Numbered from the stretch's first letter, positions 6,762 to 18,728 are shown. The stretch: 64,000 nucleotides of DNA from Acidobacteriota bacterium (GCA_965209055.1 OZ242374.1:2592001-2656000), one strand, 5' to 3'. A program made the numbers and translations. The notes: generated by a model from the letters alone, not told the origin.

Positions 6762-7877
6762 TCAGTCGATCCTGCCGAAGATCCCGACGTAGGTGGGTTT
6801 CTCGCTCGTGGGAACCGGGCCCCCGAACCGGGTCAGGCGGCCGTCCGGTCCGATCCGGAAGATGAGGATCGAGTCGGCGTCCTGATTCGCCACCAGCAAC
6901 AGCCGTCCGCCGGGATCGATGTCGAAGTTCCGCGGAATCCGGATCAATCCGTCTCCCTGCTCCCAGCCGATCCGTTCCAGTCGCCCCGTTCCGGGATCCA
7001 CCCGGAAGATGACGATGCTGTTGTGTCCCCGGTTGGACGCATAGACGAACTCCCCCGACGGAGAGACCAGGATGTGGGCGCCGGTGTTTCTGCTGCGGTC
7101 GAACCCGGAGGGCAGCGAGTCCACCGTCTCCCTGCCGGAGAGCCGGCCGGTGGCTGCGTCGTAGCGCCAGGAGTGGACCGTGCTGTTGGTCTCGTTGACG
7201 GCGTAGGCGAAGCGGCCGCCGGGATGAAACGCCATGTGCCGGGGACCGGCTCCCTCGTCGGTGGGAGCCACCGCCGGATCGTTCGGTTCCAACCGGCCCG
7301 ATTCGGCGTCGAAGCGGAACTGGGCAATGTAGTCGGAGTTGGTGCAGGGAATGAAATAGTAGTTGCCGCCGGGGTCCGCTTGGACCATGTGCGTCTTCTT
7401 TCCCACTTTTCTCGTTAGCACGGGGTTTCCCGCAGCGCCGTCGGGACCCAGGGGCAGGACCGAGACGTAGCCCGCTCCGGGATGATAGTGAACCACCAGG
7501 AGCCAGCGTCCCGAGGGATGCACGTGGAGGTGAGGAGGCGATCCCGGACCAACCGGGGTCCGTGAAATCCGCCGCAGGCCGCGGTCTCCGTCCTCGATGG
7601 CCAGAGCGACCACGTGGGGCGGTTCCAACCGGTCCAGGGCATACAGGAATTTCCCGTTGGGATGGCGCGCCACGTAGGGAAAGCTGCCCGAGTCGTCGGT
7701 GGGCCGCAGGGCCCCGGAGCCCCGCTTCTCCAGGATTCCCCGATTCAGGTCCAGCGTGTGGATGTCGATCCGGCTGCTCCCTCCGGCAACGTAGACGATC
7801 GGGTCCGGGTTTCGAGCCTTCACCGTCTGAGTCAAGAAAAGGACCATGAAGCAGTATCCGAGGTGTTTTTTAGCCAT
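6762..7877 (-). CDS. Lactonase family 7-bladed beta-propeller (6-phosphogluconolactonase-like), probably secreted
   Basis: GAGPRHMAFHP, YAVNE, YASNRGHNSI, PRNF.IDP.G..LLVANQ; start uncertain (7877 or 7934). Confidence 0.85.
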   Translation of the reverse strand: MAKKHLGYCFMVLFLTQTVKARNPDPIVYVAGGSSRIDIHTLDLNRGILEKRGSGALRPTDDSGSFPYVARHPNGKFLYALDRLEPPHVVALAIEDGDRGLRRISRTPVGPGSPPHLHVHPSGRWLLVVHYHPGAGYVSVLPLGPDGAAGNPVLTRKVGKKTHMVQADPGGNYYFIPCTNSDYIAQFRFDAESGRLEPNDPAVAPTDEGAGPRHMAFHPGGRFAYAVNETNSTVHSWRYDAATGRLSGRETVDSLPSGFDRSRNTGAHILVSPSGEFVYASNRGHNSIVIFRVDPGTGRLERIGWEQGDGLIRIPRNFDIDPGGRLLLVANQDADSILIFRIGPDGRLTRFGGPVPTSEKPTYVGIFGRID

Positions 7878-7948
7878 CTGTGTGCCTGCGGCGGCCCATG
7901 ATAGCATGCCTTTTCCGAGATCCCGGAGAGCCAAAGAGGAGGGTGGCC

Positions 7949-9460
7949 ATGTCTCAAACCATCGATCGGCGCCAGTTCCAGAAACGGCTCACGGCCGCGC
8001 TTGCCGCCACTGCCGTGCTGCCGCTGGGATGCGAGACACGGGGCCCGGCTTCCGAGGCTCCGGTTTCGTCCGGAGACAAAACTCCCGAGGGAGGCAGCGG
8101 AATCCTGAGCGTGACCCGGGGGGCTCCCGTCCTCACGGTGCCGGAGGTCATGCCGGAGGGCGCGCGATGGCGCTACGGCCTGATACTCCCCTTCCAGGCC
8201 GGGCCCTACACCGGGGGAGCCTTCGTCAACGTGCGCATCCGCAACGGGGTCATGGGCCACAAGAGCGGCCATGGCGACTACGAGGTGGGAAACGACGTGG
8301 TGCTCTTCGATTCCATCGATGGGATTCGTTCGGGCTCGACCTTGAATCTCCACCGCAATCACGACGAGCCGAATCCCCACTCCGATCCGCCGGGGCAGAC
8401 GTCCATCATGGTCAAGTACCCCATGCGGGGTGGCTTCGTTCCCCTGGGAGCCAAAACCGCCTCGGGAGCGGATCACTCGGCCGCGGGGACGGGGTTCGGT
8501 ATCAGCCTGGCGCTGGCGCGGCGCAAGAAGGGGACGGACCACCCCGACGGAGCCGAGTACAGCCAGGAGGAAAATTACCAGTACTTCGAGGTGTTCCAAC
8601 TGTCCTTCGACGGCGAACGGATGCGGCGGACCGATGTGCAGAGGTTCCGGCCGGAATCCATGGTCGAGGGGTGGTGGATCTACAACGGCGGGCTCGCCAA
8701 CGCCATTCCTTCGGGCGACGATCTTCTGCTGTGCGTGTCCGCGGCCGCGCGCAAGGGCGGTGACGGCTACGATCCCCGCGTGCCGGGCGGCTCCGGTGTC
8801 CTTCGCTGGAGCCGGCAGGGAGGCCGGTGGCAACCCGAGTCGTTCGTCATGGTGACCGGCGCCGACTCCTCCAGCGAGGCCAGCCTGATCCGGGATCTGG
8901 ATGGATCGCTTCTCTTCGCAGCCCGGCCCGGCCCGCAGGATTTCCACTCGATCCGGGTCTGGCGGTCACAGGACGAGGGGCGGAGCTGGAAGAAGATCAT
9001 CGATGTCCGGGGGGTCATCTCCATCGCCCCCATCACCCTGAACCAGGCTGTGGACGGGACTCCCTACATTGCTTCGAACATCTACCTGGTGCCGACCCAT
9101 CCCATCGACAAGCGCTTCCGGACCATTCGGGACCGCCAGGGCCGAGTGAGGGGAGGCGGATGGACCCGGCAGAAGCTCTACCTCTGGCCGCTGAACCAGG
9201 AGCGCACCGGTTTGGAGGCGCCCATTCCGGCCCGCGACTGCCGGGCGGAGTTCGGTCCGCCGCCGGGAGATTCCATGTGGCGGGTGGACCACCCTTTTGC
9301 CGCCAATCTCCATCTGGGAGACGGGAATTGGCACAACGTCATGGGTTACCGGATCCATGAGGATGTGGAGGACCATGATGCCGTCCTTCCCCCCGAGACC
9401 GGTTCGTACCTGGAGGAGGTCATCTCCGCCGGCCCGCCGATTCCTGCTTGGAAATTCTGA
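7949..9460 (+). CDS. Tat lipoprotein with sialidase-like (Asp-box) propeller features; function unknown
   Basis: SD GAGGAGG; DRRQF Tat motif, lipobox LGC, Asp-box SQDEGRSW. Confidence 0.65.
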   Translation: MSQTIDRRQFQKRLTAALAATAVLPLGCETRGPASEAPVSSGDKTPEGGSGILSVTRGAPVLTVPEVMPEGARWRYGLILPFQAGPYTGGAFVNVRIRNGVMGHKSGHGDYEVGNDVVLFDSIDGIRSGSTLNLHRNHDEPNPHSDPPGQTSIMVKYPMRGGFVPLGAKTASGADHSAAGTGFGISLALARRKKGTDHPDGAEYSQEENYQYFEVFQLSFDGERMRRTDVQRFRPESMVEGWWIYNGGLANAIPSGDDLLLCVSAAARKGGDGYDPRVPGGSGVLRWSRQGGRWQPESFVMVTGADSSSEASLIRDLDGSLLFAARPGPQDFHSIRVWRSQDEGRSWKKIIDVRGVISIAPITLNQAVDGTPYIASNIYLVPTHPIDKRFRTIRDRQGRVRGGGWTRQKLYLWPLNQERTGLEAPIPARDCRAEFGPPPGDSMWRVDHPFAANLHLGDGNWHNVMGYRIHEDVEDHDAVLPPETGSYLEEVISAGPPIPAWKF

Positions 9461-9470
9461 GTTCGGGGGA

Positions 9471-9662
9471 CGGGTCGGCGCCGAGTCGCTTCTGTGGGGG
9501 AGCGACAGCCCGTACGGGGTGTCGCAGTGGTGCACCTACCGGCAGTCGCTCGACTTCATCCGGGTGCACTGCGGCTTCCTGTCGGCGGCGGAGAAGGCGG
9601 CCATTTTGGGTGGCAATGCCGCCCGGCTGTTCGAATTGGAACGATCGGCGCGGCGTAGCTGA
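9471..9662 (+). pseudogene. Orphan 3' fragment (63 codons) of an amidohydrolase
   Basis: RVGAESLLWGSDSPY...ILGGNAARLF; 53/63 aa identical to 11986-12177; no start of its own. Confidence 0.88.
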
Positions 9663-9693
9663 AGCCGTCCTGCCACCGCACTCGGCCGTCGGG

Positions 9694-10107
9694 TTACGCT
9701 CGTTGGTAGGCCAGGGCGGCTGCATATCCGCAAGCCAACGTCTGGACTATGCCGTATATGTACCAGTGCATGGACATTGAGAACGAAATGGGCATCACGG
9801 CGTAGCTGGTGAACACCGCAGGTAAGAAGATGAGATTGCCAATCAACATCCCGTATGGGCCCCCCTCCTTGAGACCTTCCCCTTTGTAGCCAACGGTGAA
9901 ACCGAAGGTGAACAAAAAGGAGAAAATCAAGCCACCCAGCATGATCAGCCCCATGTTGATGTCCTCCGGCATGCGCCACATCGTATGGGTTTCCTGGTAG
10001 AAATCTGTCATGAGCACCTGATGAATTATGAATCCCAGCACCTCATGTACGACGAAAACCGCTGCGACGGCCAGGAAAAATTTCTTACTGTTCACGTTGC
10101 TGCTCAT
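9694..10107 (-). CDS. Small ~4-TM membrane protein (DUF1761-like), copy A
   Basis: Strong SD GGAGGAG; aligns without gaps to 12188-12589 (~55% aa identity). Confidence 0.8.
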   Translation of the reverse strand: MSSNVNSKKFFLAVAAVFVVHEVLGFIIHQVLMTDFYQETHTMWRMPEDINMGLIMLGGLIFSFLFTFGFTVGYKGEGLKEGGPYGMLIGNLIFLPAVFTSYAVMPISFSMSMHWYIYGIVQTLACGYAAALAYQRA

Positions 10108-10168
10108 TCCCTCTCCTCCCACGAAATGAATTCTGTGTCGTACTGAACGACAAGAGGACAATTCTTGT

Positions 10169-10237
10169 TCACTCAATCCGCTGAATCAATGGCGCCACCT
10201 TGGATTCCTGGACTCTTCCTCCGGGAATGCAAGGTTT
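10169..10237 (-). pseudogene. Relic of promoter palindrome and first codons of a DUF4143 ATPase gene
   Basis: 10178-10236 matches 13853-13911 ungapped (38/59 nt), with conserved palindrome arms; reads LIQRIE* where the intact gene reads TIPRVL. Confidence 0.6.
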
Positions 10238-10274
10238 GTTGTTTTGGCCTGACGATTCAGGCGCGTTTATGATT

Positions 10275-10490
10275 TGACCCTTGGTGTACTCGTGAAGATC
10301 GACCTTCACCCCGACCCTGTCAGCGGCCCGGGGCAACGGCTTGTCGGGAATCGCCCATCTCATCCCTGTCCGTCTGTTGACGAAGACGTAAGGGGTGCTC
10401 CGGTAGCGGGGGAGCCCGGTCAGGGATCCGGCGGCGTACTTCGAGAGTGGTATCTCCCTCGACTCACGTTTCTCAACCGCTGATCCTCGC
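10275..10490 (-). pseudogene. Tyrosine recombinase/integrase internal fragment
   Basis: K.RESREIPLS..A...L..LPR...PYVFVN..TG.RW..P.KPL.RAA..VG..V.LH resembles the segment leading into the HxLRH box, broken at the His. Confidence 0.6.
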
Positions 10491-10848
10491 CCTTCCACTA
10501 CGGCTTGGCCGAACGGTTACTTCGATGCCGGCTTTTTGGCTGTCCCACCCGGAAGCTCCTTAGCCAAGCGTCCCTTTCCCGTCGCCGCGAAGATCGCAAT
10601 CGAGGACCCTTACGCCCGAAGGGAAAAAAGTTTGTGACCGATTCCGTTTTCGGGCGTTGTATTGACTAGAGCGCGAAAATGCGAGGTCCGTCGAAGGAAA
10701 TGAGATGCTCAATCCATGGCACTTGGCTTGCGACGGCATTGACCTCCAGGTTTCTTCAGGGCAGGCCCCGACCTGTCCCCCTTGTGCCCGCCGACTGGCG
10801 AAACGCCGAATCCGGATGCGCCGGGATTCTTCCCCGGAAGGAGGCTGT

Positions 10849-10941
10849 ATGAGAACACGCACCAAAAATGATGACCGGGAATTCAGGATCGCCTTGCTGC
10901 TGCTGGTGGCCTTGTTGCTGCTGGCCAGCCTGCCGGGCTGA
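10849..10941 (+). CDS. 30-aa single-TM peptide MRTRTKNDDREFRIALLLLVALLLLASLPG
   Basis: SD AAGGAGG at 10838-10844, charged N-terminus plus Leu-rich helix. Confidence 0.5.
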   Translation: MRTRTKNDDREFRIALLLLVALLLLASLPG

Positions 10942-11225
10942 GTGGCGCGGCACGCGCCGGACTGATCCAAAGTGCGAGATGTGAAGCCGACGTGGAGACC
11001 CAGGTGCGGCTGTACGATCGAGCTGGGGGCGACGCTTCCGCAAGACCGTGGAAGACCAGTCGCAGGCGGCGGGCCTCTTGACGCATTCGTGCCTCGATTC
11101 GGTCAGTGCGATTCTGGACCTCCGCGACCGGCGCCAACGAGAAGGACTGCCTCATCCGGCGGCAGCGGGACCCTCGCCCCCCGTGAGATGAGTAGATCCG
11201 AACGAGTTCCCATGAAAGGTCACCC

Positions 11226-11324
11226 ATGAATCCGGAAGCATCCCTCGAAGACCTCATCGACGGAGTCGCGCTGAGCCTCCTGATTGTCGTGGCGGCGTTC
11301 TTTGCTTTGCAGGTCGCCTGCTGA
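11226..11324 (+). CDS. 32-aa single-TM peptide MNPEASLEDLIDGVALSLLIVVAAFFALQVAC
   Basis: SD-like GAAAGGT just upstream; acidic N-terminus plus ~20-residue hydrophobic helix; below the ORF-track cutoff. Confidence 0.45.
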   Translation: MNPEASLEDLIDGVALSLLIVVAAFFALQVAC

Positions 11325-11344
11325 ACCGGGGGCATTCCCAGGGA

Positions 11345-12177
11345 CGCAGATCTACCCGCCCAGCCTGACCAACAACGAAGCCAGCCCGGAGCGGATGGTG
11401 GCGGAAATGGACATGGCGGGCGTCGACATCGGCGTGCTGCAGTCGGACCTTGTCTATGGCGATCTCAACGAGTACTACGCCGAGGCGGCCGCCCGTTATC
11501 CGGGCCGCTTCATCCCGCTGGCACAGATCTGGGAGCCGGAAGCGGTCGATGCCGGCCGGCTGTCCCGCCTGAGGGAGGGATTCGATGAGCTGGGCATGCG
11601 CGGCCTCTATTTCAGTGTCGAGCCCCTTTCGGTCATGCAGGCCGACCGCTCGCTGAACGATCCCACGTTCGACGCCCTCTGGCAGGTGGAGGAGGAGTGG
11701 GCGCTTCCGGTGTTCTGGTTCCTGGACGACCGTGCGTTGGACCGGGTGGGCCTGTTCATGCGCCGCGTCGCGGAACTGGACGAGTGGACCGGGCGCCACC
11801 CGGACGTGCCGTGCGTGATCACCCACGGCCTGGTGCCGGCTGCGATCATCCACCAGATCGGTGTGCCGGAGGAGCTGCTGCAGGTGCTCGAACGGCCGCA
11901 GGTGCACGCCGAACTGCTGATGCCGGCCAAGTGGCCCGATTACCCTTACCCCGAAGGCCAGAAGCTCTTACGGGTACTGCGCGACCGCGTCGGCGCCGAG
12001 TCGCTGCTGTGGGGGAGCGACAGCCCGTACGGGATGTCTCAGTGGTGCACCCACCGGCAGTCGATCGACTTCATCCGTGTACACTGCGACTTTCTCTCGG
12101 AGACGGAAAAGGCGGCGATCCTGGGCGGCAATGCCGTCCGGCTGTTCGGCCTGGAGCGCGCGGCGCCGCGAAGCTGA
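11345..12177 (+). pseudogene. Amidohydrolase_2-family gene, apparently 5'-truncated
   Basis: EMDMAGVD..VL, YPGRF, ITHG, LLWGSDSPY and ILGGNA..LF are present, but the N-terminal DxHxH metal motif and a credible start are missing. Confidence 0.65.
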
Positions 12178-12187
12178 AACCGCCGGG

Positions 12188-12589
12188 TCAAGCCCGCTCG
12201 TAGACCAGGACGGCAACGAGTCCGCAGGCCACGACCTGGACCGTCCCATAGATGGACCAGGCGATGGCCAGCGCCAAAGTGATGGGCTGCACGGCGTAGG
12301 TCCCAAATGCCGCGGGGACCGAGATCAGGAGGCCGACCAGCAGTCCGTACCGAAGCCCTTCCATAAGACCTTTCCCTTCATAGCCCTTGGTGAAGATATA
12401 GGTGAAGAGCAGGGACCACACGAGCCCGACCAGATAGACCAAGCCGATGTTGACCTCTTCCGGCATCCGCCACAACGAGTACGTCTCTTGGTAGTAGGGT
12501 GTCAAGAGCACCGCGTGGATGACGTATCCCAGGACCTCACGAACGACGAGAACCGCCAAGGCGGTCAAAAGGAATCTCTTTATGTTCAC
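12188..12589 (-). CDS. Small ~4-TM membrane protein (DUF1761-like), copy B
   Basis: GTG start with SD GGAGG; EGLRYGLLVG motif; paralog of 9694-10107. Confidence 0.8.
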   Translation of the reverse strand: MNIKRFLLTALAVLVVREVLGYVIHAVLLTPYYQETYSLWRMPEEVNIGLVYLVGLVWSLLFTYIFTKGYEGKGLMEGLRYGLLVGLLISVPAAFGTYAVQPITLALAIAWSIYGTVQVVACGLVAVLVYERA

Positions 12590-12694
12590 CTCATTTCCTC
12601 CCCTGGATAGGAATTTGCATCGGAATGCAAGACGCGATCCGAAGATTTCGTTCTGAATCTACTACGGCCGCTCCTTACCGATCCAGGAGGGTGC

Positions 12695-13870
12695 CTAATG
12701 GTCCCGGCTGGAGAGTTCGTCGGCGAGAGCCTCCAAGCCGATGGCTTCGAGGTTGTCCCCTTTCGGATAACGATCCTCGCCCGAGTGCACCAGAAACGCC
12801 TTTTCCGGCTGTAGATCGGTCAGCGCGACCCGCAAGCCCCGCTCCACTTTGGGGGCGAGTCCGCGTTTGATCTCGATGGCCCAGAGGCGGCCTCCCGGAA
12901 GCTCCAGTACCAGATCGACCTCGACGCCGGTGGCGGTGCGATAGAAGCTGGCTTGGGTGCGCTCGGGGGCGGCCCGGATCAGGGTTTCCAGGACGAATCC
13001 TTCCCAACTCTTGCCGGCGACGGGGTGACCGAGGACGCTCTCCTCATCACCGAGGCGCAGCAACGTGTGGACGATGCCGCTGTCGCGGACGTAGAGCCGG
13101 GGGGATTTCACCAGACGCTTCCGAACGTTGGCGAAAAACGGCGGCAGCCGGCGAACCAACAGCAGGTCAACCAACAGGTCCAGGTACTTGGCCACGGTCT
13201 TGCCGTCGACGGCGAGAGCGCGGGCCAGATTCGCCGCGTTCAGTAGATCCCCCTGGCCATGGGCCAGCATGGTCCAGAGCCGCCGCAAGGTTTCGGCCGG
13301 GATCCGAGGCCCCAACTGAGGGATGTCCCGTTCCAGATAGCTCCGGACGAACTGATCCCGCCACCGCGCGCTCTGATGATCGCTTGGCGCCAGAAAGCTG
13401 GGCGGGAATCCGCCCCTGATCCAGAGTGAAGTCCGGGTCTCTTCTCGGGTCTCCCGGATGTCCAGCGGCGACAGTTCCAGGCAGGCAATACGTCCAGCCA
13501 GGCTCTCGCCCGATTGCCGCAACAGATCGATGGCGGCGGAACCGAGAATGAGGAATTGACCGGCGGGCTCGCCACCCCGGATGCGTTCGTCGATGAGAAC
13601 GCGCAAGAGCTGGAAGAGCTCCGGCGCGCGTTGCACTTCGTCGAGCACCACGAGCCGTCCGCGCAGGGAGCGGAGGTAGGCGCCCTGATCCTCCAGCTTG
13701 ACCAGATCGGCGGGGTCTTCCAGATCCAGGTACACGCTGCCGGCAGTGCGCGCTAAATCCCGGGCCAGAGTCGTCTTTCCCACCTGCCGGGGCCCAAGAA
13801 GGGCAACGGCCGGGAACTGACGCAGATATGACTCGACTTTGGGTCGCAACACTCGCGGAATCGTGGACAC
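12695..13870 (-). CDS. AAA_14 ATPase with DUF4143 and C-terminal restriction-endonuclease-like domain
   Basis: GPRQVGKTT, VLDEVQ, ESLAGR, RGGFP, KRLVKSP..Y.RDSG, EVDLV...AIEIK. Confidence 0.92.
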   Translation of the reverse strand: MSTIPRVLRPKVESYLRQFPAVALLGPRQVGKTTLARDLARTAGSVYLDLEDPADLVKLEDQGAYLRSLRGRLVVLDEVQRAPELFQLLRVLIDERIRGGEPAGQFLILGSAAIDLLRQSGESLAGRIACLELSPLDIRETREETRTSLWIRGGFPPSFLAPSDHQSARWRDQFVRSYLERDIPQLGPRIPAETLRRLWTMLAHGQGDLLNAANLARALAVDGKTVAKYLDLLVDLLLVRRLPPFFANVRKRLVKSPRLYVRDSGIVHTLLRLGDEESVLGHPVAGKSWEGFVLETLIRAAPERTQASFYRTATGVEVDLVLELPGGRLWAIEIKRGLAPKVERGLRVALTDLQPEKAFLVHSGEDRYPKGDNLEAIGLEALADELSSRDH

Positions 13871-13951
13871 AACCTTGCAATTACGGAACTGATCTCCAGG
13901 AATGCAAGTTTAAACGAGAAAATGAGGGAGTCTCGAGGTGGAAATTATCGT

Positions 13952-13983
13952 TTGACACTAGGTGTACTATGTGAAATAGTACA
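13952..13983 (+). promoter_or_regulatory. Sigma70 promoter with overlapping YtrA-type operator
   Basis: TTGACA (13952-13957), 17 nt, AATAGT; perfect inverted repeat TGTACTAT-N5-ATAGTACA (13963-13983) ending 3 nt before the ATG. Confidence 0.8.
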
Positions 13984-13986
13984 GCT

Positions 13987-14397
13987 ATGCTTCCGTTCGC
14001 GGTCCGGTTGCGCACCGGCGTCTCCGTTTACCGGCAACTGGTCTATGCGGTCCAGAAGGCGGTGGTCTCAGGACAGTTGCTTCCCGGCGACCGGTTTCCT
14101 TCCGTACGGAACCTGAGCCAGGAGCTCCGGATCAATCCCAACACGGCTCAGAAGGTGGTGAGGCGGCTGGTGGATCAAGGGCTCCTGGAGGTCCAACCGG
14201 GCATCGGCACCATCGTCGGCCAGCTGCCGGAGGCGACCCCGCGGGAACGCTCGGCGCTGCTGGAGGACGAGGTCGAGCAGGTGGTGGTGGAGGCCAGAAG
14301 GTTGTCCCTGACTCGGGACCAGCTCGTCCGAGCGGTCGAGGACCAGTGGGAACGGCTCTCGAATGCCGGGAATCAGAGGAAGCAGAAGGAGGGGTGA
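13987..14397 (+). CDS. GntR-family regulator, YtrA subfamily
   Basis: VYRQL, L.PGDRFPSVR.LS.EL.INPNT..K, GIGT; short C-terminal domain; precedes ABC ATPase. Confidence 0.92.
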   Translation: MLPFAVRLRTGVSVYRQLVYAVQKAVVSGQLLPGDRFPSVRNLSQELRINPNTAQKVVRRLVDQGLLEVQPGIGTIVGQLPEATPRERSALLEDEVEQVVVEARRLSLTRDQLVRAVEDQWERLSNAGNQRKQKEG

Positions 14398-14398
14398 C

Positions 14399-15313
14399 AT
14401 GAACGCCGTCATCGAGACTCAAGGACTGACCCGCCGATTTCGGAAGACCGTTGCCGTCAAGGATCTCTCTCTGGAGGTCCCGGCCGGCAGCATCTTCGCC
14501 CTGCTGGGCCCCAACGGCGCCGGCAAGACCACACTCATCAAGATGGTCATGAACATGGTCCGGCCCTCCGGTGGCAGGGCCACGATTCTGGGAACCGATT
14601 CGCTTCGTCTGGGACCGCCCCAGTTGGAGCGGATCGGCTACGTCTCCGAAAACCAGGAGTTGCCGGAATGGATGACCGTCCAGGAGCTGATCGATTACTG
14701 CCGGCCCTTCTACCCGGCTTGGGACGACGACTTATGCCGCCGGCTAATCCGGCAGTTCAACCTCCCCCTGGCGCGTCAGCTGAAGACTTTTTCCCGCGGG
14801 ATGAAGGTCAAGGCGGCGCTGTTGTCGTCCCTTTCCTACCGGCCGGAACTGATGATCCTGGACGAACCTTTCACCGGCCTGGACGCGCTGGTCCGGGATG
14901 AGTTGATTCGGGGCCTGCTGGAGGTGACGGACAGGAAGGAGCGGACCATCTTCATCGCCTCCCACGACATCGACGAAGTGGAGCGTCTGGCCGATTGGGT
15001 GGGAGTGATCCACAACGGCGAGATGCAGATGTCCGAGCCTGCGGCGTCGCTTCGAATCCGCTTCCGCCGGTGCGAGGCGACTTTGGAACGAGGCCAAGAG
15101 ATACCGGAGACCCTCCCGGAAACATGGCTGATGGCAGAGCGGGCCGGACAGGTGCTCCGTTTCGTGGATAGCCGTTTCCAAAACGGAACCGGCGCGGAAA
15201 CCATTCGGGAGGTCCTTCCGGGAGTCAAGGACCTCGACGTGAGCCCCATGTCTCTGAAGGAAATCTTTCTCGCATTGGCTCGATCTTGGCGGCTCTACGA
15301 GGAGGAGGGATGA
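14399..15313 (+). CDS. ABC transporter ATP-binding protein (YtrB-like)
   Basis: GPNGAGKTT, FSRGMK, ILDEPFTGLD, ASHD. Confidence 0.93.
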   Translation: MNAVIETQGLTRRFRKTVAVKDLSLEVPAGSIFALLGPNGAGKTTLIKMVMNMVRPSGGRATILGTDSLRLGPPQLERIGYVSENQELPEWMTVQELIDYCRPFYPAWDDDLCRRLIRQFNLPLARQLKTFSRGMKVKAALLSSLSYRPELMILDEPFTGLDALVRDELIRGLLEVTDRKERTIFIASHDIDEVERLADWVGVIHNGEMQMSEPAASLRIRFRRCEATLERGQEIPETLPETWLMAERAGQVLRFVDSRFQNGTGAETIREVLPGVKDLDVSPMSLKEIFLALARSWRLYEEEG

Positions 15314-16953
15314 AGCTGATACTACACATCTTTCGCAAGGACTTTCGTCACCTTCGTCTCTACCTGGCCGGTTGGTTGGGATTGTTGATATCTGTGTGCC
15401 TCTTCGTCCGTCTCGGGTGGGGCCTTGGTCTGGGTTGGATCGCTGTCATTGGAGTGCTGAAGGTCGCATTGTTGGCGTTGATCGTTTCCAATCTGGTTCA
15501 GGAAGACTCTCCCGTGGGAAGCACCTCATTCTGGCTGAGTCGGCCTGTTTCCGGTCGGCAGTTGCTGGCCGCCAAGTCGGTCGTTTTGGCGGTGACATTG
15601 ATAATTCCGGCACTTCTGGTCGAGGTTATGTTTCTCCTCTTCAATGGAGTTACCGCGCACGACACCCTCCGTTCAATCCCCGAGACACTGATCTACACGC
15701 TCTTCGCTATTGCAATCCTCATGATGCTAGCCGTTTTGACACGCAGTCTCTCCCAGATGGTGGCGTTGGGTCTCTTTTTTTCGGTTTCCATGATTGTTTT
15801 CCTGCTGGTGAGAGCGGACATATTTTTCCCTGGGATTCGATTGGACATCGATCCTTTAACCTCGATGACCCTGAGGAGTTCGAAGTGGATTGGGTTTTTT
15901 CTAATCCTTCTGACAATGGCGGCAATCGTGGTCTGCCTCCAATATCTGACTCGGCGGAGGAAGCTCAATGCCATCCTCGCGCTGGCAGGTCTGCTTCCAT
16001 GCATCCTGACTGTTGAAATGTGGACTTGGGATTTCGTGGCTGCGTTACGACGACCAGAACGGACTGTCGTTGACCCCGAAAAGTTGGTGGCTAGGATCGA
16101 CGAACAGAGTCTGAAGTTTTTTTCCAACGCCTCTGTGCCTTCGCGAGATAGACGAATGGTTCTCCACGGGACCATCGTGACCGAGAATCATCCTGACGAT
16201 CTGATGGTTGTACCGTTGCAGGTCGGTTCCAAGGTGTCATTTGGTCCCATAGGTCCTGGGCATCGTGGGCATTGGGAGCGCGATGTCAACGAGTACGAAG
16301 ACCGGCAACTAGACGACATGGATTTTGACTATTGGGACTCGGAATTGGACGACGGACGAATCGAGGCTTTTGAACAAGCCTTAGGGGGCGTGCGCCTATT
16401 GGCCGACAAATACAGAATTGAAACCGGGTACTATCCCAAGTTTTTGGAAATTTCCCAAACAGACTATGAAAGTGACGCGGCAAGCAACGGCAGGTTCTCG
16501 GCGGAGGTAGATTTTCTAATTCAACGGATTGAGATCGTGCCGTTACCGATGGAAATAGGGGCTCGGTACCGCCGGGGTTCAGATCACGCCGAAATTCTCA
16601 AGGTAACTCCTGACGGGATGATGATGTGGATCGAACTGAAGGAGTCCCGCCACAGGTTGTTGTCTAAACAACCACGAAAACGATGGTACGTCTTGCGCAA
16701 CCGCTCTCGTGGGGAGGCACTGCTAGGGGACGGAGTGAACTCCAATTCCTTCGGTGTGGCCCGTTTTGTCCTCCCCACGGTGAGCTTCAATCATTTGCGA
16801 CTACATTTCAATCTGCCTTTGCAGAATCCGTCATATGGTCCCGAATGGTTCGAGGGTGCAGAGCTCTTGAGAATCGACATGACGTATCTCGGCGTCGTTT
16901 CCAAGTCGCTTCGAATAGAAAACTTCGTTATGAATCGCATACCCGGTCCGTAG
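15310..16953 (+). CDS. Large ABC permease-like membrane protein 1 (multi-TM N-half plus soluble C-domain)
   Basis: Start overlaps ATPase stop; HIFRKDFRHLR, D..VGST.FWL.RPVSG.QLL..K; paralog of next gene. Confidence 0.75.
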   Translation: MKLILHIFRKDFRHLRLYLAGWLGLLISVCLFVRLGWGLGLGWIAVIGVLKVALLALIVSNLVQEDSPVGSTSFWLSRPVSGRQLLAAKSVVLAVTLIIPALLVEVMFLLFNGVTAHDTLRSIPETLIYTLFAIAILMMLAVLTRSLSQMVALGLFFSVSMIVFLLVRADIFFPGIRLDIDPLTSMTLRSSKWIGFFLILLTMAAIVVCLQYLTRRRKLNAILALAGLLPCILTVEMWTWDFVAALRRPERTVVDPEKLVARIDEQSLKFFSNASVPSRDRRMVLHGTIVTENHPDDLMVVPLQVGSKVSFGPIGPGHRGHWERDVNEYEDRQLDDMDFDYWDSELDDGRIEAFEQALGGVRLLADKYRIETGYYPKFLEISQTDYESDAASNGRFSAEVDFLIQRIEIVPLPMEIGARYRRGSDHAEILKVTPDGMMMWIELKESRHRLLSKQPRKRWYVLRNRSRGEALLGDGVNSNSFGVARFVLPTVSFNHLRLHFNLPLQNPSYGPEWFEGAELLRIDMTYLGVVSKSLRIENFVMNRIPGP

Positions 16954-17066
16954 GAAACTCCGCGATTGGTCCCGGTGAATCCTTCCGGAATTGTGACCCC
17001 AATGGCCTTGGAACCAGACATTCACCCATTGGTTGGGAGCCGCCGGAATCGCGGCGAGGAGGCGAG

Positions 17067-18728
17067 ATGAATATGGTGGTGCACCTCATTCGCAAGGACT
17101 TTCAGCATCTCCGCTTCTATCTGGCCGGATGGCTCGCTCTGGTGATCCTGCGCGCGGCCGTGATCGGGTACGGGCCGCTTGATCCCAGCATCTGGAACTT
17201 CAGTTCATTCAACTATTTCGAGAGTTTGGCCTGGTTTCCGCAGATCTGTTTGCTGGCAATCATGATCGCGCGCCTGGTGCATGACGACTCCCTGGTCGGC
17301 AGCACCGCTTTCTGGTTGGATCGGCCGATTACCGGTCGCCAGCTTCTGTTGGGCAAATTGTCGTTTCTCGGCCTTGCCGTGATGCTACCGCTCTTCGTAG
17401 TCGAACTCCTGCTCCTCGGTTTCCACGGCGTGACTCTACCGGACGTCATTCGCTCGATTCCGCAGATTCTGGCCCTTGAACTCCTTCTGACTTCGGTGCT
17501 GTTGATGCTTGCCGCCGTAACGCGGAAGTTGGTTCACGTGGCCCTATTGGGTCTGCTTGGTCCGATCGTTTGGATGTTGTTCTACAATTTTTCGCGCAAT
17601 CTCTTCTTCGAACACGTTGACCTCAGCGACGCTTTCGGCATCTCGCTGGCGACATCACGGGAAATCGCATTCATGCTGAGCCATCTTGCCGTCGCTGGAT
17701 TCGTGGTCGGCCATCAGTATCTGACTCGACGGACGGCGAGGAGCGCCACCTTGGCCTGCTCCGGACTCCTGGCCGTAGGTTTGGTGGCAGTGATCTGGAG
17801 TTGGGATTTCGTGGCGTCGGCCCAACGATTGGACCGGAGGGTCGTCGATCCGGAACAGTTGACGCTCCGGATCGAGGAGGGAAGCCTGCGTTTCTTTCGA
17901 CGCGTGCGGTCCCAACCATTGAGACGAAGTATGGTCCTGAACGGAAACATTGCGCTGGAGGGCTTGCCGACGGGTGTTTTGGCGGTTCCCGAGCAGGTCA
18001 TCTCACAGGTTTCATTCGGGTCAACGGAAGAGGCGTTTTCCAGCCGACACGGTCACCCGTACGCAATCGAAGGTGACGGCTTCTGGTGGCGATTCAATCA
18101 TCCGCCCAGATTGCATGAAGAGAGAGCCAATATCCTCTCGGCTGCTTTGGGCGGCGTCGACTTTCTGGACGGCGGAAGAAGGCCGATTCTCGAATACCTG
18201 CCCGAGTTGTTGTCTATCGACGAGGAGTCCTACGATCTCCACGGTGGGACTCGGTCCGATCTTACGGTCAAGGTCGGCTTTCTGGTTCAAAGGAACGATA
18301 TCGCGACCTTCCCGTTGGAGCATGGCGCCCGCTACGACAGGGGATCGGACCACGTCGAGATCCTCGGTGTGACCACGAACAAGAACAGCCTGAGGATCGA
18401 ACTGAAAGAGTCGCGTCATCGCCTGATCCAGGACCGGATGAAAAGCCGGTGGTACCTGCTCCGCAACCGGGCTAAGCGGCAGGCGGTTCTGAGCGAAGGA
18501 TCGATTGCCTTTGCCATTCTGACCCCTCCTCTGGGGCCACTTTTGTTTCCCATGCTGGGAATCAGCCATTCGAGTCTGTATTTTCAGTTGCCTTCCACCG
18601 ACTCTCCCGTGGACCCGGACTGGATTGACGACGCCGAGCTCGTCCGGATCGAGACCAGGAACCTGGGCCGTTTCTCCAAGACGATCCGAATGGAGAACCT
18701 CGTCCTGCAAGACATCCCCGGTCCCTGA
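17067..18728 (+). CDS. Large ABC permease-like membrane protein 2
   Basis: SD GAGGAGG; HLIRKDFQHLR, DDSLVGSTAFWL.RPITG; both paralogs end in IPGP. Confidence 0.75.
   Translation: MNMVVHLIRKDFQHLRFYLAGWLALVILRAAVIGYGPLDPSIWNFSSFNYFESLAWFPQICLLAIMIARLVHDDSLVGSTAFWLDRPITGRQLLLGKLSFLGLAVMLPLFVVELLLLGFHGVTLPDVIRSIPQILALELLLTSVLLMLAAVTRKLVHVALLGLLGPIVWMLFYNFSRNLFFEHVDLSDAFGISLATSREIAFMLSHLAVAGFVVGHQYLTRRTARSATLACSGLLAVGLVAVIWSWDFVASAQRLDRRVVDPEQLTLRIEEGSLRFFRRVRSQPLRRSMVLNGNIALEGLPTGVLAVPEQVISQVSFGSTEEAFSSRHGHPYAIEGDGFWWRFNHPPRLHEERANILSAALGGVDFLDGGRRPILEYLPELLSIDEESYDLHGGTRSDLTVKVGFLVQRNDIATFPLEHGARYDRGSDHVEILGVTTNKNSLRIELKESRHRLIQDRMKSRWYLLRNRAKRQAVLSEGSIAFAILTPPLGPLLFPMLGISHSSLYFQLPSTDSPVDPDWIDDAELVRIETRNLGRFSKTIRMENLVLQDIPGP

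Follow-up and report, generated by a model that had tools for sequence, protein, structure and literature searches.

A diverged tandem repeat beside an integrase relic in an Acidobacteriota genome is most likely a rearrangement scar carrying a second DUF1761-like membrane gene

The single-contig genome of an Acidobacteriota bacterium (GCA_965209055.1, OZ242374.1; 6.08 Mb, 62.8% guanine plus cytosine (GC)) was analysed in a window of 64,000 nucleotides (nt), corresponding to positions 2,592,001–2,656,000, and all coordinates given here are positions within this window. The window contains two diverged copies of a three-part arrangement, composed of the 3′ end of an amidohydrolase gene, a convergent gene for a small DUF1761-like membrane protein (memA in the first copy, memB in the second) and the region upstream of a GntR-family regulator gene. 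Comparison with related genomes leads us to propose, with a probability of roughly 65%, that the first copy (fragment A, about 9462–10290) is an ectopic, illegitimately joined piece of another haplotype of the same locus, the donor most likely being another lineage of the genus. The repeat as a whole is most likely an ordinary rearrangement scar, which has left a second and apparently functional membrane paralogue, and not a gene-cassette system.

Self-comparison by blastn aligned 9471–10117 with 11986–12604 over 647 columns at 70.3% identity (E 3e-88). This is the sole such repeat pair in the genome, in which a search returned no third copy of the unit. Unit A (9471–10290) and unit B (11986–13968) are colinear and share the order of tail, convergent membrane gene and GntR-gene upstream region, the only large indel between them being a gene for a DUF4143 ATPase (about 12660–13853) that is present in unit B alone. 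The 5′ leaders of the two membrane genes (about 10102–10178 and 12589–12659) can be aligned, none of 1000 shuffles scoring as high, while the third block (10179–10295 versus 13854–13974) is identical at 76 of 113 aligned bases, a score likewise reached by none of 1000 shuffles. A preliminary description of this DNA, made from the sequence alone, had reported the same three-part order twice, and these alignments and shuffle tests bear that out. Its start for copy A (9471) stands, while its end (10237) does not, as the homology runs on to 10290. It had also rightly observed that identity is uneven (as measured here, tails 53/63 amino acids (aa), 84.1%, or 85.9% over 192 nt; membrane proteins 55.6% over 133 aa), that the membrane gene is the sole part intact in both copies, that the two membrane genes are divergent forms, and that a simple recent in-place duplication does not account for the pair. 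The ATPase of copy A had been described as a promoter and a few codons; the shared block does span the ATPase start position, but the mention of codons is only loosely true, since neither a start codon nor recognisable ATPase coding sequence was found in copy A at that position. Loss of the ATPase from A and its insertion in B are both conceivable: the short repeat-like words CTCAATC and CTGAATC stand side by side in A and fit neither choice decisively.

The features of the region are, in order:

7880–9460, plus strand: upstream flanking gene for a secreted-looking protein of 526 aa, the stop codon of which forms the left joint of fragment A.
9471–9662, plus strand: tail A, the orphan last 63 codons and stop of an Amidohydro_2 gene (PF04909, profile positions 235–289, 32.3 bits).
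9663–9693: spacer between tail A and memA, made up of the 10-nt spacer that separates tail and memB in all species plus a 21-nt insertion.
9694–10107, minus strand: memA, an intact gene for a 137-aa A-type DUF1761-like membrane protein (PF08570, 20.7 bits).
10108–10290: native upstream region of memA, with leader and ribosome-binding site, an inverted-repeat block (about 10199–10236), a relic −35 box (TTGACC, 10274–10279) and the left half-site of the putative GntR operator (GTGTACT, 10284–10290).
10290–10465, minus strand: integrase relic, 176 nt from the interior of a tyrosine recombinase gene, 75–84% identical in nucleotides to 28 other genomic matches.
10466–11283: patchwork spacer, common to the relative G008 at about 92%.
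11284–12177, plus strand: amidohydrolase B, a 5′-truncated Amidohydro_2 (PF04909) gene.
12188–12589, minus strand: memB, a gene for a 133-aa B-type DUF1761-like membrane protein, 76–88% identical in amino acids to the single or first copy at 7/7 related loci.
12695–13870, minus strand: DUF4143/AAA_14 ATPase gene (PF13635, 161 bits; PF13173, 89 bits; PADLOC PDC-S01).
13871–13986: intergenic region of unit B, with an inverted-repeat block, the GntR promoter (−35 box at 13952–13957) and the palindrome GTGTACT...AGTACAG (13962–13984).
13987–14397, plus strand: GntR-family regulator gene (136 aa, PF00392), the first gene of a GntR-ABC-permease operon and the right flank of the locus.

The polarity of the event can be read from G008, the closest relative (94–96% identity in the flanks), which aligns with this genome (G000) over 7800–9461 and then from 10290–11003 onward, at 92–96%, and has no counterpart of 9462–10289. 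Of the 88 bases that intervene in G008, about 50 are a hairpin region found also after the 526-aa gene in G002 and G003 (E 1e-9), and the remaining ~40 continue the integrase frame exactly as the full-length copies do, the orthologous relic of G008 extending about 40 nt further than the one described here. The hairpin, which resembles repetitive extragenic palindromic (REP) elements, follows the 526-aa gene in all three of these relatives and is not found there in this genome. Since a deletion in G008 cannot create both a hairpin and a longer relic, fragment A replaced these ~90 bases in the present lineage after its split from G008. A contig of run X19 also skips from 9452 to 10290 (about 91% identity), as G008 does. 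The relic and the patchwork (10290–11322) are common to this genome and G008 at about 92%, indicating that the integrase element had decayed before the capture, and unit B is taken to be native because it is contiguous with orthologous DNA in G008 (91%) and G001 (87.5%).

The left joint lies at the stop codon of the 526-aa gene, where GAG is common to that gene and the amidohydrolase sequence. At the right joint the putative operator half-site of the GntR gene, GGTGTACT, runs into the integrase sequence CGTGAAGA, with a microhomology of the form T-GTGAA (the operator would go on ATGTGAA, and the integrase reads TCGTGAA). Both joints are microhomologies of 3–7 nt, with no longer homology at either end, and are not recombination sites. 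A search for att-like, repeated or inverted sites at 9461/9471, 10290, 11986 and 13968 revealed none beyond the homology of the units themselves. A recombination tract in the upstream gene was considered as an anchor and set aside: identity to G008 falls from ~96% to 91–94% in the last 300 nt, a fall that is not significant and is confounded by a gap in the G008 contig.

The amidohydrolase tails diverge to about the level seen between species (86% nt). Tail A is 84.4–89.6% identical in nucleotides to the tails of other species and no nearer to its co-resident tail B (85.9%), which is itself nearest to the tail of G008 (93.2%). As the ratio of non-synonymous to synonymous differences (pN/pS) between tail A and other tails is 0.19–0.39, the differences of tail A appear to have arisen inside a working gene, and this ratio together with the pattern of identity argues against both a long history as an orphan and gene conversion within the genome. 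Across all seven tail sequences, identity ranges from 84 to 95% and pN/pS from 0.15 to 0.59. Tail A has no upstream gene body and is regarded as a non-functional remnant. Copy B was suspected in the preliminary description of being 5′-truncated, and comparison with G001 confirms this: the G001 orthologue encodes 386 aa with an N-terminal DAHYH motif, homology begins in copy B only at 11342, and about 99 N-terminal residues, DAHYH included, are lacking. The N-terminal His-x-His/DAHYH motif is one that we take to be metal-binding in Amidohydro_2 proteins, and a complete barrel carrying it was found in neither copy, tail A covering profile positions 235–289 only and copy B being without the DAHYH region. 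The apparently conserved tail is what most species still have of a gene that erodes from the 5′ end beside a retained neighbour. A 32-codon micro-ORF (open reading frame) that precedes amidohydrolase B (11226–11324) is kept in G008 (L028 5313–5966), where a 314-nt deletion joins it in frame to the amidohydrolase remnant.

The membrane genes have a different and older history. They are 66.4% identical in nucleotides, and memA (GC 51.4%, GC at third codon positions (GC3) 71.7%) is more AT-rich than memB (GC 58.7%, GC3 79.1%), as had been judged by eye. The two proteins score 20.7 and 22.4 bits against DUF1761 (PF08570), a family of small multi-pass membrane proteins, below the Pfam cut-off of 31 yet over nearly the whole profile length, and the homologues P0009, P0015 and P0022 carry a precomputed DUF1761 domain. 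In the tree, memA and the second copy of G005 form one clade (support 100/99 for protein and 98/98 for DNA) that falls inside the genus, after the outgroups G026 and G020, while the synonymous divergence (dS) between memA and memB is 1.04 versus 0.46 for the B orthologues of G000 and G005. These results make memA and memB old paralogues that split before the genus radiated and memB the vertically inherited copy; the uneven divergence of the units is then explained, because the tails are between-species versions of one gene and the membrane genes are old paralogues. A dS of 0.75 between memA and the second copy of G005, above the value of 0.46 for B orthologues (by about two standard errors, the gene being short), and the lower GC3 of memA are compatible with a donor from the edge of the sampled genus or just beyond it. 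The possibility that memA is a B/A chimera was rejected, as A-type characters reach to within 28 nt of its stop codon and no breakpoint is visible.

Given an intact reading frame, a ratio of non-synonymous to synonymous substitution rates (dN/dS) of 0.22 against the second copy of G005 and 137-aa relatives of 85% identity in metagenome assemblies, memA is apparently functional and under purifying selection; the gene is preceded by a ribosome-binding site of the GGAGGAG type. It came with 183 nt of native upstream DNA, 80 nt of which are 88.8% identical to the stretch that precedes the GntR gene beside the memA relic of G002 (versus 67% to unit B). This upstream DNA ends 19 nt short of the equivalent of the GntR start codon and carries no more of the GntR promoter than its −35 box and half of the overlapping palindrome, and regulation of memA therefore probably differs from the native state. 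Searches bearing on the function of the two proteins gave little: a scan against NCBIfam gave no match, a protein atlas returned unnamed clusters only, and, judged by the titles and abstracts listed, no publication containing the term DUF1761 was about the family. A metagenome scan for A-type loci gave one distant match (41% identity). In the outgroups the DUF1761-like gene adjoins ORFs that look sulfatase-like (an eye judgement from N-terminal sequences), in the same direction in G026 (L029 8289–9644) and convergently in G011 (L012 13–1461), with no GntR or ABC match found at these loci.

The genus comprises nine genomes in the collection, eight of which contain the membrane gene, the exception being G006 (94% complete), and the locus was compared in seven relatives (G001, G002, G003, G004, G005, G007 and G008). 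All seven have a lactonase gene, the 526-aa gene, a variable middle and the GntR-ABC operon, except that the short G008 contig stops inside the ATPase gene. The variable parts are distributed as follows:

B-type membrane gene: 7/7 relatives, at 76–88% aa identity.
A-type membrane gene: complete in G005 only, as a B-A tandem; G002 has a 33-codon relic at the corresponding position.
Amidohydrolase: G001 alone has a full-length ORF; it is cut short or broken up in G002, G007, G008, G003 and G004, and about 70 nt remain in G005.
ATPase: complete in G003; at least residues 55–390 in G008, where the contig stops; incomplete in G001 and G004; lacking from G002, G005 and G007.
Integrase relic: among the seven relatives, in G008 only.

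The number of membrane genes at the locus is one in five relatives, two in one and one plus a relic in another; with two in this genome, it never exceeds two among these loci. The same spacer separates the tail from an A-type or a B-type gene in different lineages, and the DNA after memA in G005 and G002 is a different one. In G002 and G005, the stretches that part the two tandem copies are homologous and hold no tail; a candidate tail remnant was discarded, as the best match to the start of the tail scored 22 against a shuffle mean of 16.8 and, in a second test, 103 of 300 shuffles scored as high as the best match. The locus is thus a decaying, variable region. In the position of the ATPase, G005 (L026 10530–10677) and G007 (L027, about 10200–10400) have a common stretch of ~150 nt that is 80% identical and has no detectable similarity to the ATPase; it may be a small ORF or another relic.

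The comparison shows three steps. A REP-targeting integrase element had inserted after the upstream gene and decayed to an integrase fragment and patchwork DNA, and the 5′ end of the amidohydrolase gene had been lost, all before the split from G008. After that split, the ~90 bases of hairpin and relic end were replaced, in this lineage, by ~825 bases that comprise the end of an amidohydrolase gene, an A-type membrane gene together with its leader, and a portion of the DNA upstream of the GntR gene. Both joints are microhomologies, GAG at the stop codon and T-GTGAA inside the relic. The donor is supposed to have had the arrangement tail-memA-upstream region-GntR, derived by collapse of an older tail-memB-memA tandem of the kind seen in G005 and, decayed, in G002. 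Entry would have been by gene transfer, and fixation by double illegitimate recombination or with a one-sided anchor in the upstream gene. The outcome is an extra intact membrane gene with its own leader and half of a putative operator, beside a dead tail.

The preliminary description had favoured a different view, that of cassettes stacked or replaced through conserved flanks that work as recombination anchors. In a weaker form of this view, the tail and the GntR-upstream block would serve as homology arms of a gene-replacement hotspot at which A and B alleles are exchanged or stacked, with the ATPase as cargo and selection for several alleles. The contents of the slot do vary (B with ATPase in G003, G008 and this genome; B with a partial ATPase in G001 and G004; B followed by A in G005 and G002; B next to a brief stretch of unrelated sequence in G007; only A in fragment A), the tail-gene spacer is equal for A and B, both membrane genes are under purifying selection, and the memB tree conflicts mildly with flank identity, G001 being nearest for memB and G008 for the flanks. 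However, the sole event that can be reconstructed used neither arm: fragment A is joined to unrelated DNA, at a stop codon and a dead integrase, and not via the tail or the GntR-upstream block. Moreover, there is no recombinase beyond the 176-nt relic, no border site or other repeated site, and never more than two copies; the supposed arm is a decaying pseudogene remnant in most species; and the outgroup membrane genes lie in unrelated contexts beside the sulfatase-like ORFs, the linkage thus being genus-specific. A synteny comparison, which had been suggested as a check, gave cassettes little support: five of the seven relatives have one membrane gene, G005 has its B-A tandem without an intervening tail, and G002 has the same with A decayed. 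We therefore consider such a hotspot unlikely, and the locus, put forward as a candidate for an undescribed system, reads instead as an ordinary rearrangement scar. Exchange of alleles via the flanks by ordinary homologous recombination is possible at this locus; it was not the event seen here.

Less likely again is an old in-place tandem duplication of the whole unit in the ancestor of the genus, with gene conversion keeping the tails alike, gain of the ATPase by B or its loss from A, and a secondary disappearance of fragment A from G008 and most other species. The A/B split of the membrane genes does predate the genus radiation, the B-A tandem of G005 (decayed in G002) is a precedent for two adjacent copies, and the units are colinear over three parts. 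Yet G008 holds the ancestral hairpin and the longer relic exactly at the site of fragment A, the order is A-B here and B-A in G005 and G002, the inter-copy spacers of those two genomes are without a tail, and tail A is no nearer to tail B than to the tails of other species, the opposite of what gene conversion would produce. Assembly artefact, in the form of two strains' versions of the locus joined in series, can be given only a very small probability. Two diverged versions do lie 2.5 kb apart and the contamination estimate for the genome is 7.4%, but a 9914-nt contig from a short-read assembly of run X15 covers 8800–11832 without a single difference, and three other studies contribute contigs across one joint or the other: those of X1 and X3 bridge the left joint (9226/9236–9525, 4 differences each), and a second X19 contig bridges the right joint (10215–10590); gaps in the cover by runs X1 and X3 were not taken as evidence. 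The joints, at a stop codon and inside the integrase relic with microhomology, are also not those of a repeat edge.

The proposal that fragment A was captured from another haplotype has difficulties of its own. The donor arrangement of tail, memA and upstream region was not found among the eight genus genomes, in which one further complete A-type gene occurs, as part of a B-A tandem, and the collapse of the donor tandem is a supposition for which a crossover is invisible, memA being A-type almost to its stop. The one-sided anchor is only hinted at, identity to G008 being 93.8% over 9171–9461 versus 95.9% upstream, a difference that is not significant. In a third X19 contig a gene resembling memA (86% nt) is joined to ATPase-like sequence, and A-type haplotypes with an ATPase, and hence a more complex history, may exist. 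Lastly, run X15 may be the source sample of the genome and so not independent of it.

An integrase fragment had been noted between the copies in the preliminary description, and its position at 10290–10465 was confirmed. It amounts to 59 of about 360 codons, in a family that has 26 full-length copies in the genome, and the array has this 176-nt internal relic and no intact site-specific recombinase beside it. Each of the full-length copies (for example G000:C1:6059355–6060497) has behind it a tRNA-like 5′ half that is joined to one half of a hairpin of the REP-like kind, and the genome contains the tested hairpin word 32 times exactly and 138 times nearly so (≤2 mismatches); we read the family as one that targets REP-like hairpins. 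Within the patchwork spacer, 10522–10680 resembles DNA that follows extracytoplasmic function (ECF) sigma factor genes and 10750–11017 resembles genome position 1598125–1598393, and pieces of it also resemble DNA near a P4-type integrase elsewhere in the genome. The micro-ORFs at 10705–10941 and 11226–11324 gave no Pfam match.

Both units contain, at the edge of the variable slot, an imperfect inverted repeat (10199–10236 and 13871–13908) with arms like CCTTGCAAT...GGAATGCAAGG and a spacer of about 14 nt. It is kept in all haplotypes (A and B of this genome, G002, G005 and G007) and may represent an operator or a hairpin. The ATPase of unit B matches both of its Pfam domains above cut-off and the PADLOC PDC-S01 profile PDLC04790 at E 1e-95, which makes it a candidate member of the phage-defence candidate PDC-S01 by profile match; it has 17 tblastn matches in the genome, some of them inside one paralogue. 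On the left, the 526-aa gene is syntenic in 7/7 loci of the genus and its product has no Pfam or NCBIfam match. On the right, the GntR gene is syntenic in 6/7 loci, the G008 contig stopping before it, and its protein matches the short regulators PmtR and Rv1152 in NCBIfam below cut-off. The ABC ATPase gene of the operon is followed by two tandem genes for large multi-pass membrane proteins (15286–16953 and 16683–18728) without an NCBIfam match; relatives have one or two copies of such a gene at 39–78% identity, which makes this a further duplicated and diverging pair within the operon.

Known processes provide partial parallels. Integrating elements can duplicate the 3′ end of their target gene, as phage 21 and e14 do at icd in Escherichia coli, and a diverged 3′ gene end beside an integrase gene recalls that outcome. 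Here, however, the integrases are of a family directed at REP-like hairpins, with a tRNA-like half-site and not the amidohydrolase gene as its target, the relic predates fragment A, and the longer gene has the orphan tail on its wrong side. A closer likeness is offered by homology-facilitated illegitimate recombination (HFIR), which pairs one homologous anchor with one illegitimate end (PMC3240628; PMC5361080), and by SPDIR, a double illegitimate recombination of short patches, in which ectopic single strands anneal at microhomologies (bioRxiv 10.1101/2023.11.22.568220), as there too a heterologous piece takes the place of resident DNA and is joined to it at microhomologies of a few bases. In the consulted parts of these reports, SPDIR is described for microindel mutations, whereas the piece here is ~825 bases long and the mechanism is deduced from sequence, and HFIR involves a homologous anchor, which is here only hinted at in the upstream gene. 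The known system nearest to the idea of stacked cassettes is that of C-terminal displacement arrays: in Rhs, contact-dependent inhibition (CDI) and Vibrio cholerae type VI secretion system (T6SS) arrays, orphan 3′ gene ends, each with a small gene, accumulate by transfer and illegitimate recombination (Kirchberger et al. 2017, PMC5361080). As the consulted parts of that article present them, the orphans lie downstream of a complete gene, variability resides in the tails, which are the toxin part, and the small genes share the orientation of those tails; here the orphan is found upstream (5′) of the longer gene, the tails are conserved (84–95% nt), the small genes are convergent with them, and the enzyme is a metabolic, decaying Amidohydro_2 protein.

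No new system is revealed by this analysis. It is improbable, in our estimation, that memA has been kept because the A and B DUF1761-like proteins are useful together and that the slot is a genus-wide exchange point for alleles and ATPases; were this so, the two proteins might be immunity-like or sensor partners of the short-GntR/ABC export module against membrane-active compounds in the sponge or coral habitat, and the locus would resemble orphan immunity arrays, in a chromosomal form that has no recombinase of its own. On the explanation preferred here, the locus represents a worked example of how the look of cassette stacking, with a conserved flank, a divergent core and a neighbouring integrase, can result from two old paralogues, the decay of genes and a single illegitimate capture of a piece of a homologous locus, as well as a dated natural case of a ~0.8-kb insertion joined by microhomologies. 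It also provides two divergent, selectively maintained forms of an unstudied family of small membrane proteins, which are open to experimental comparison.

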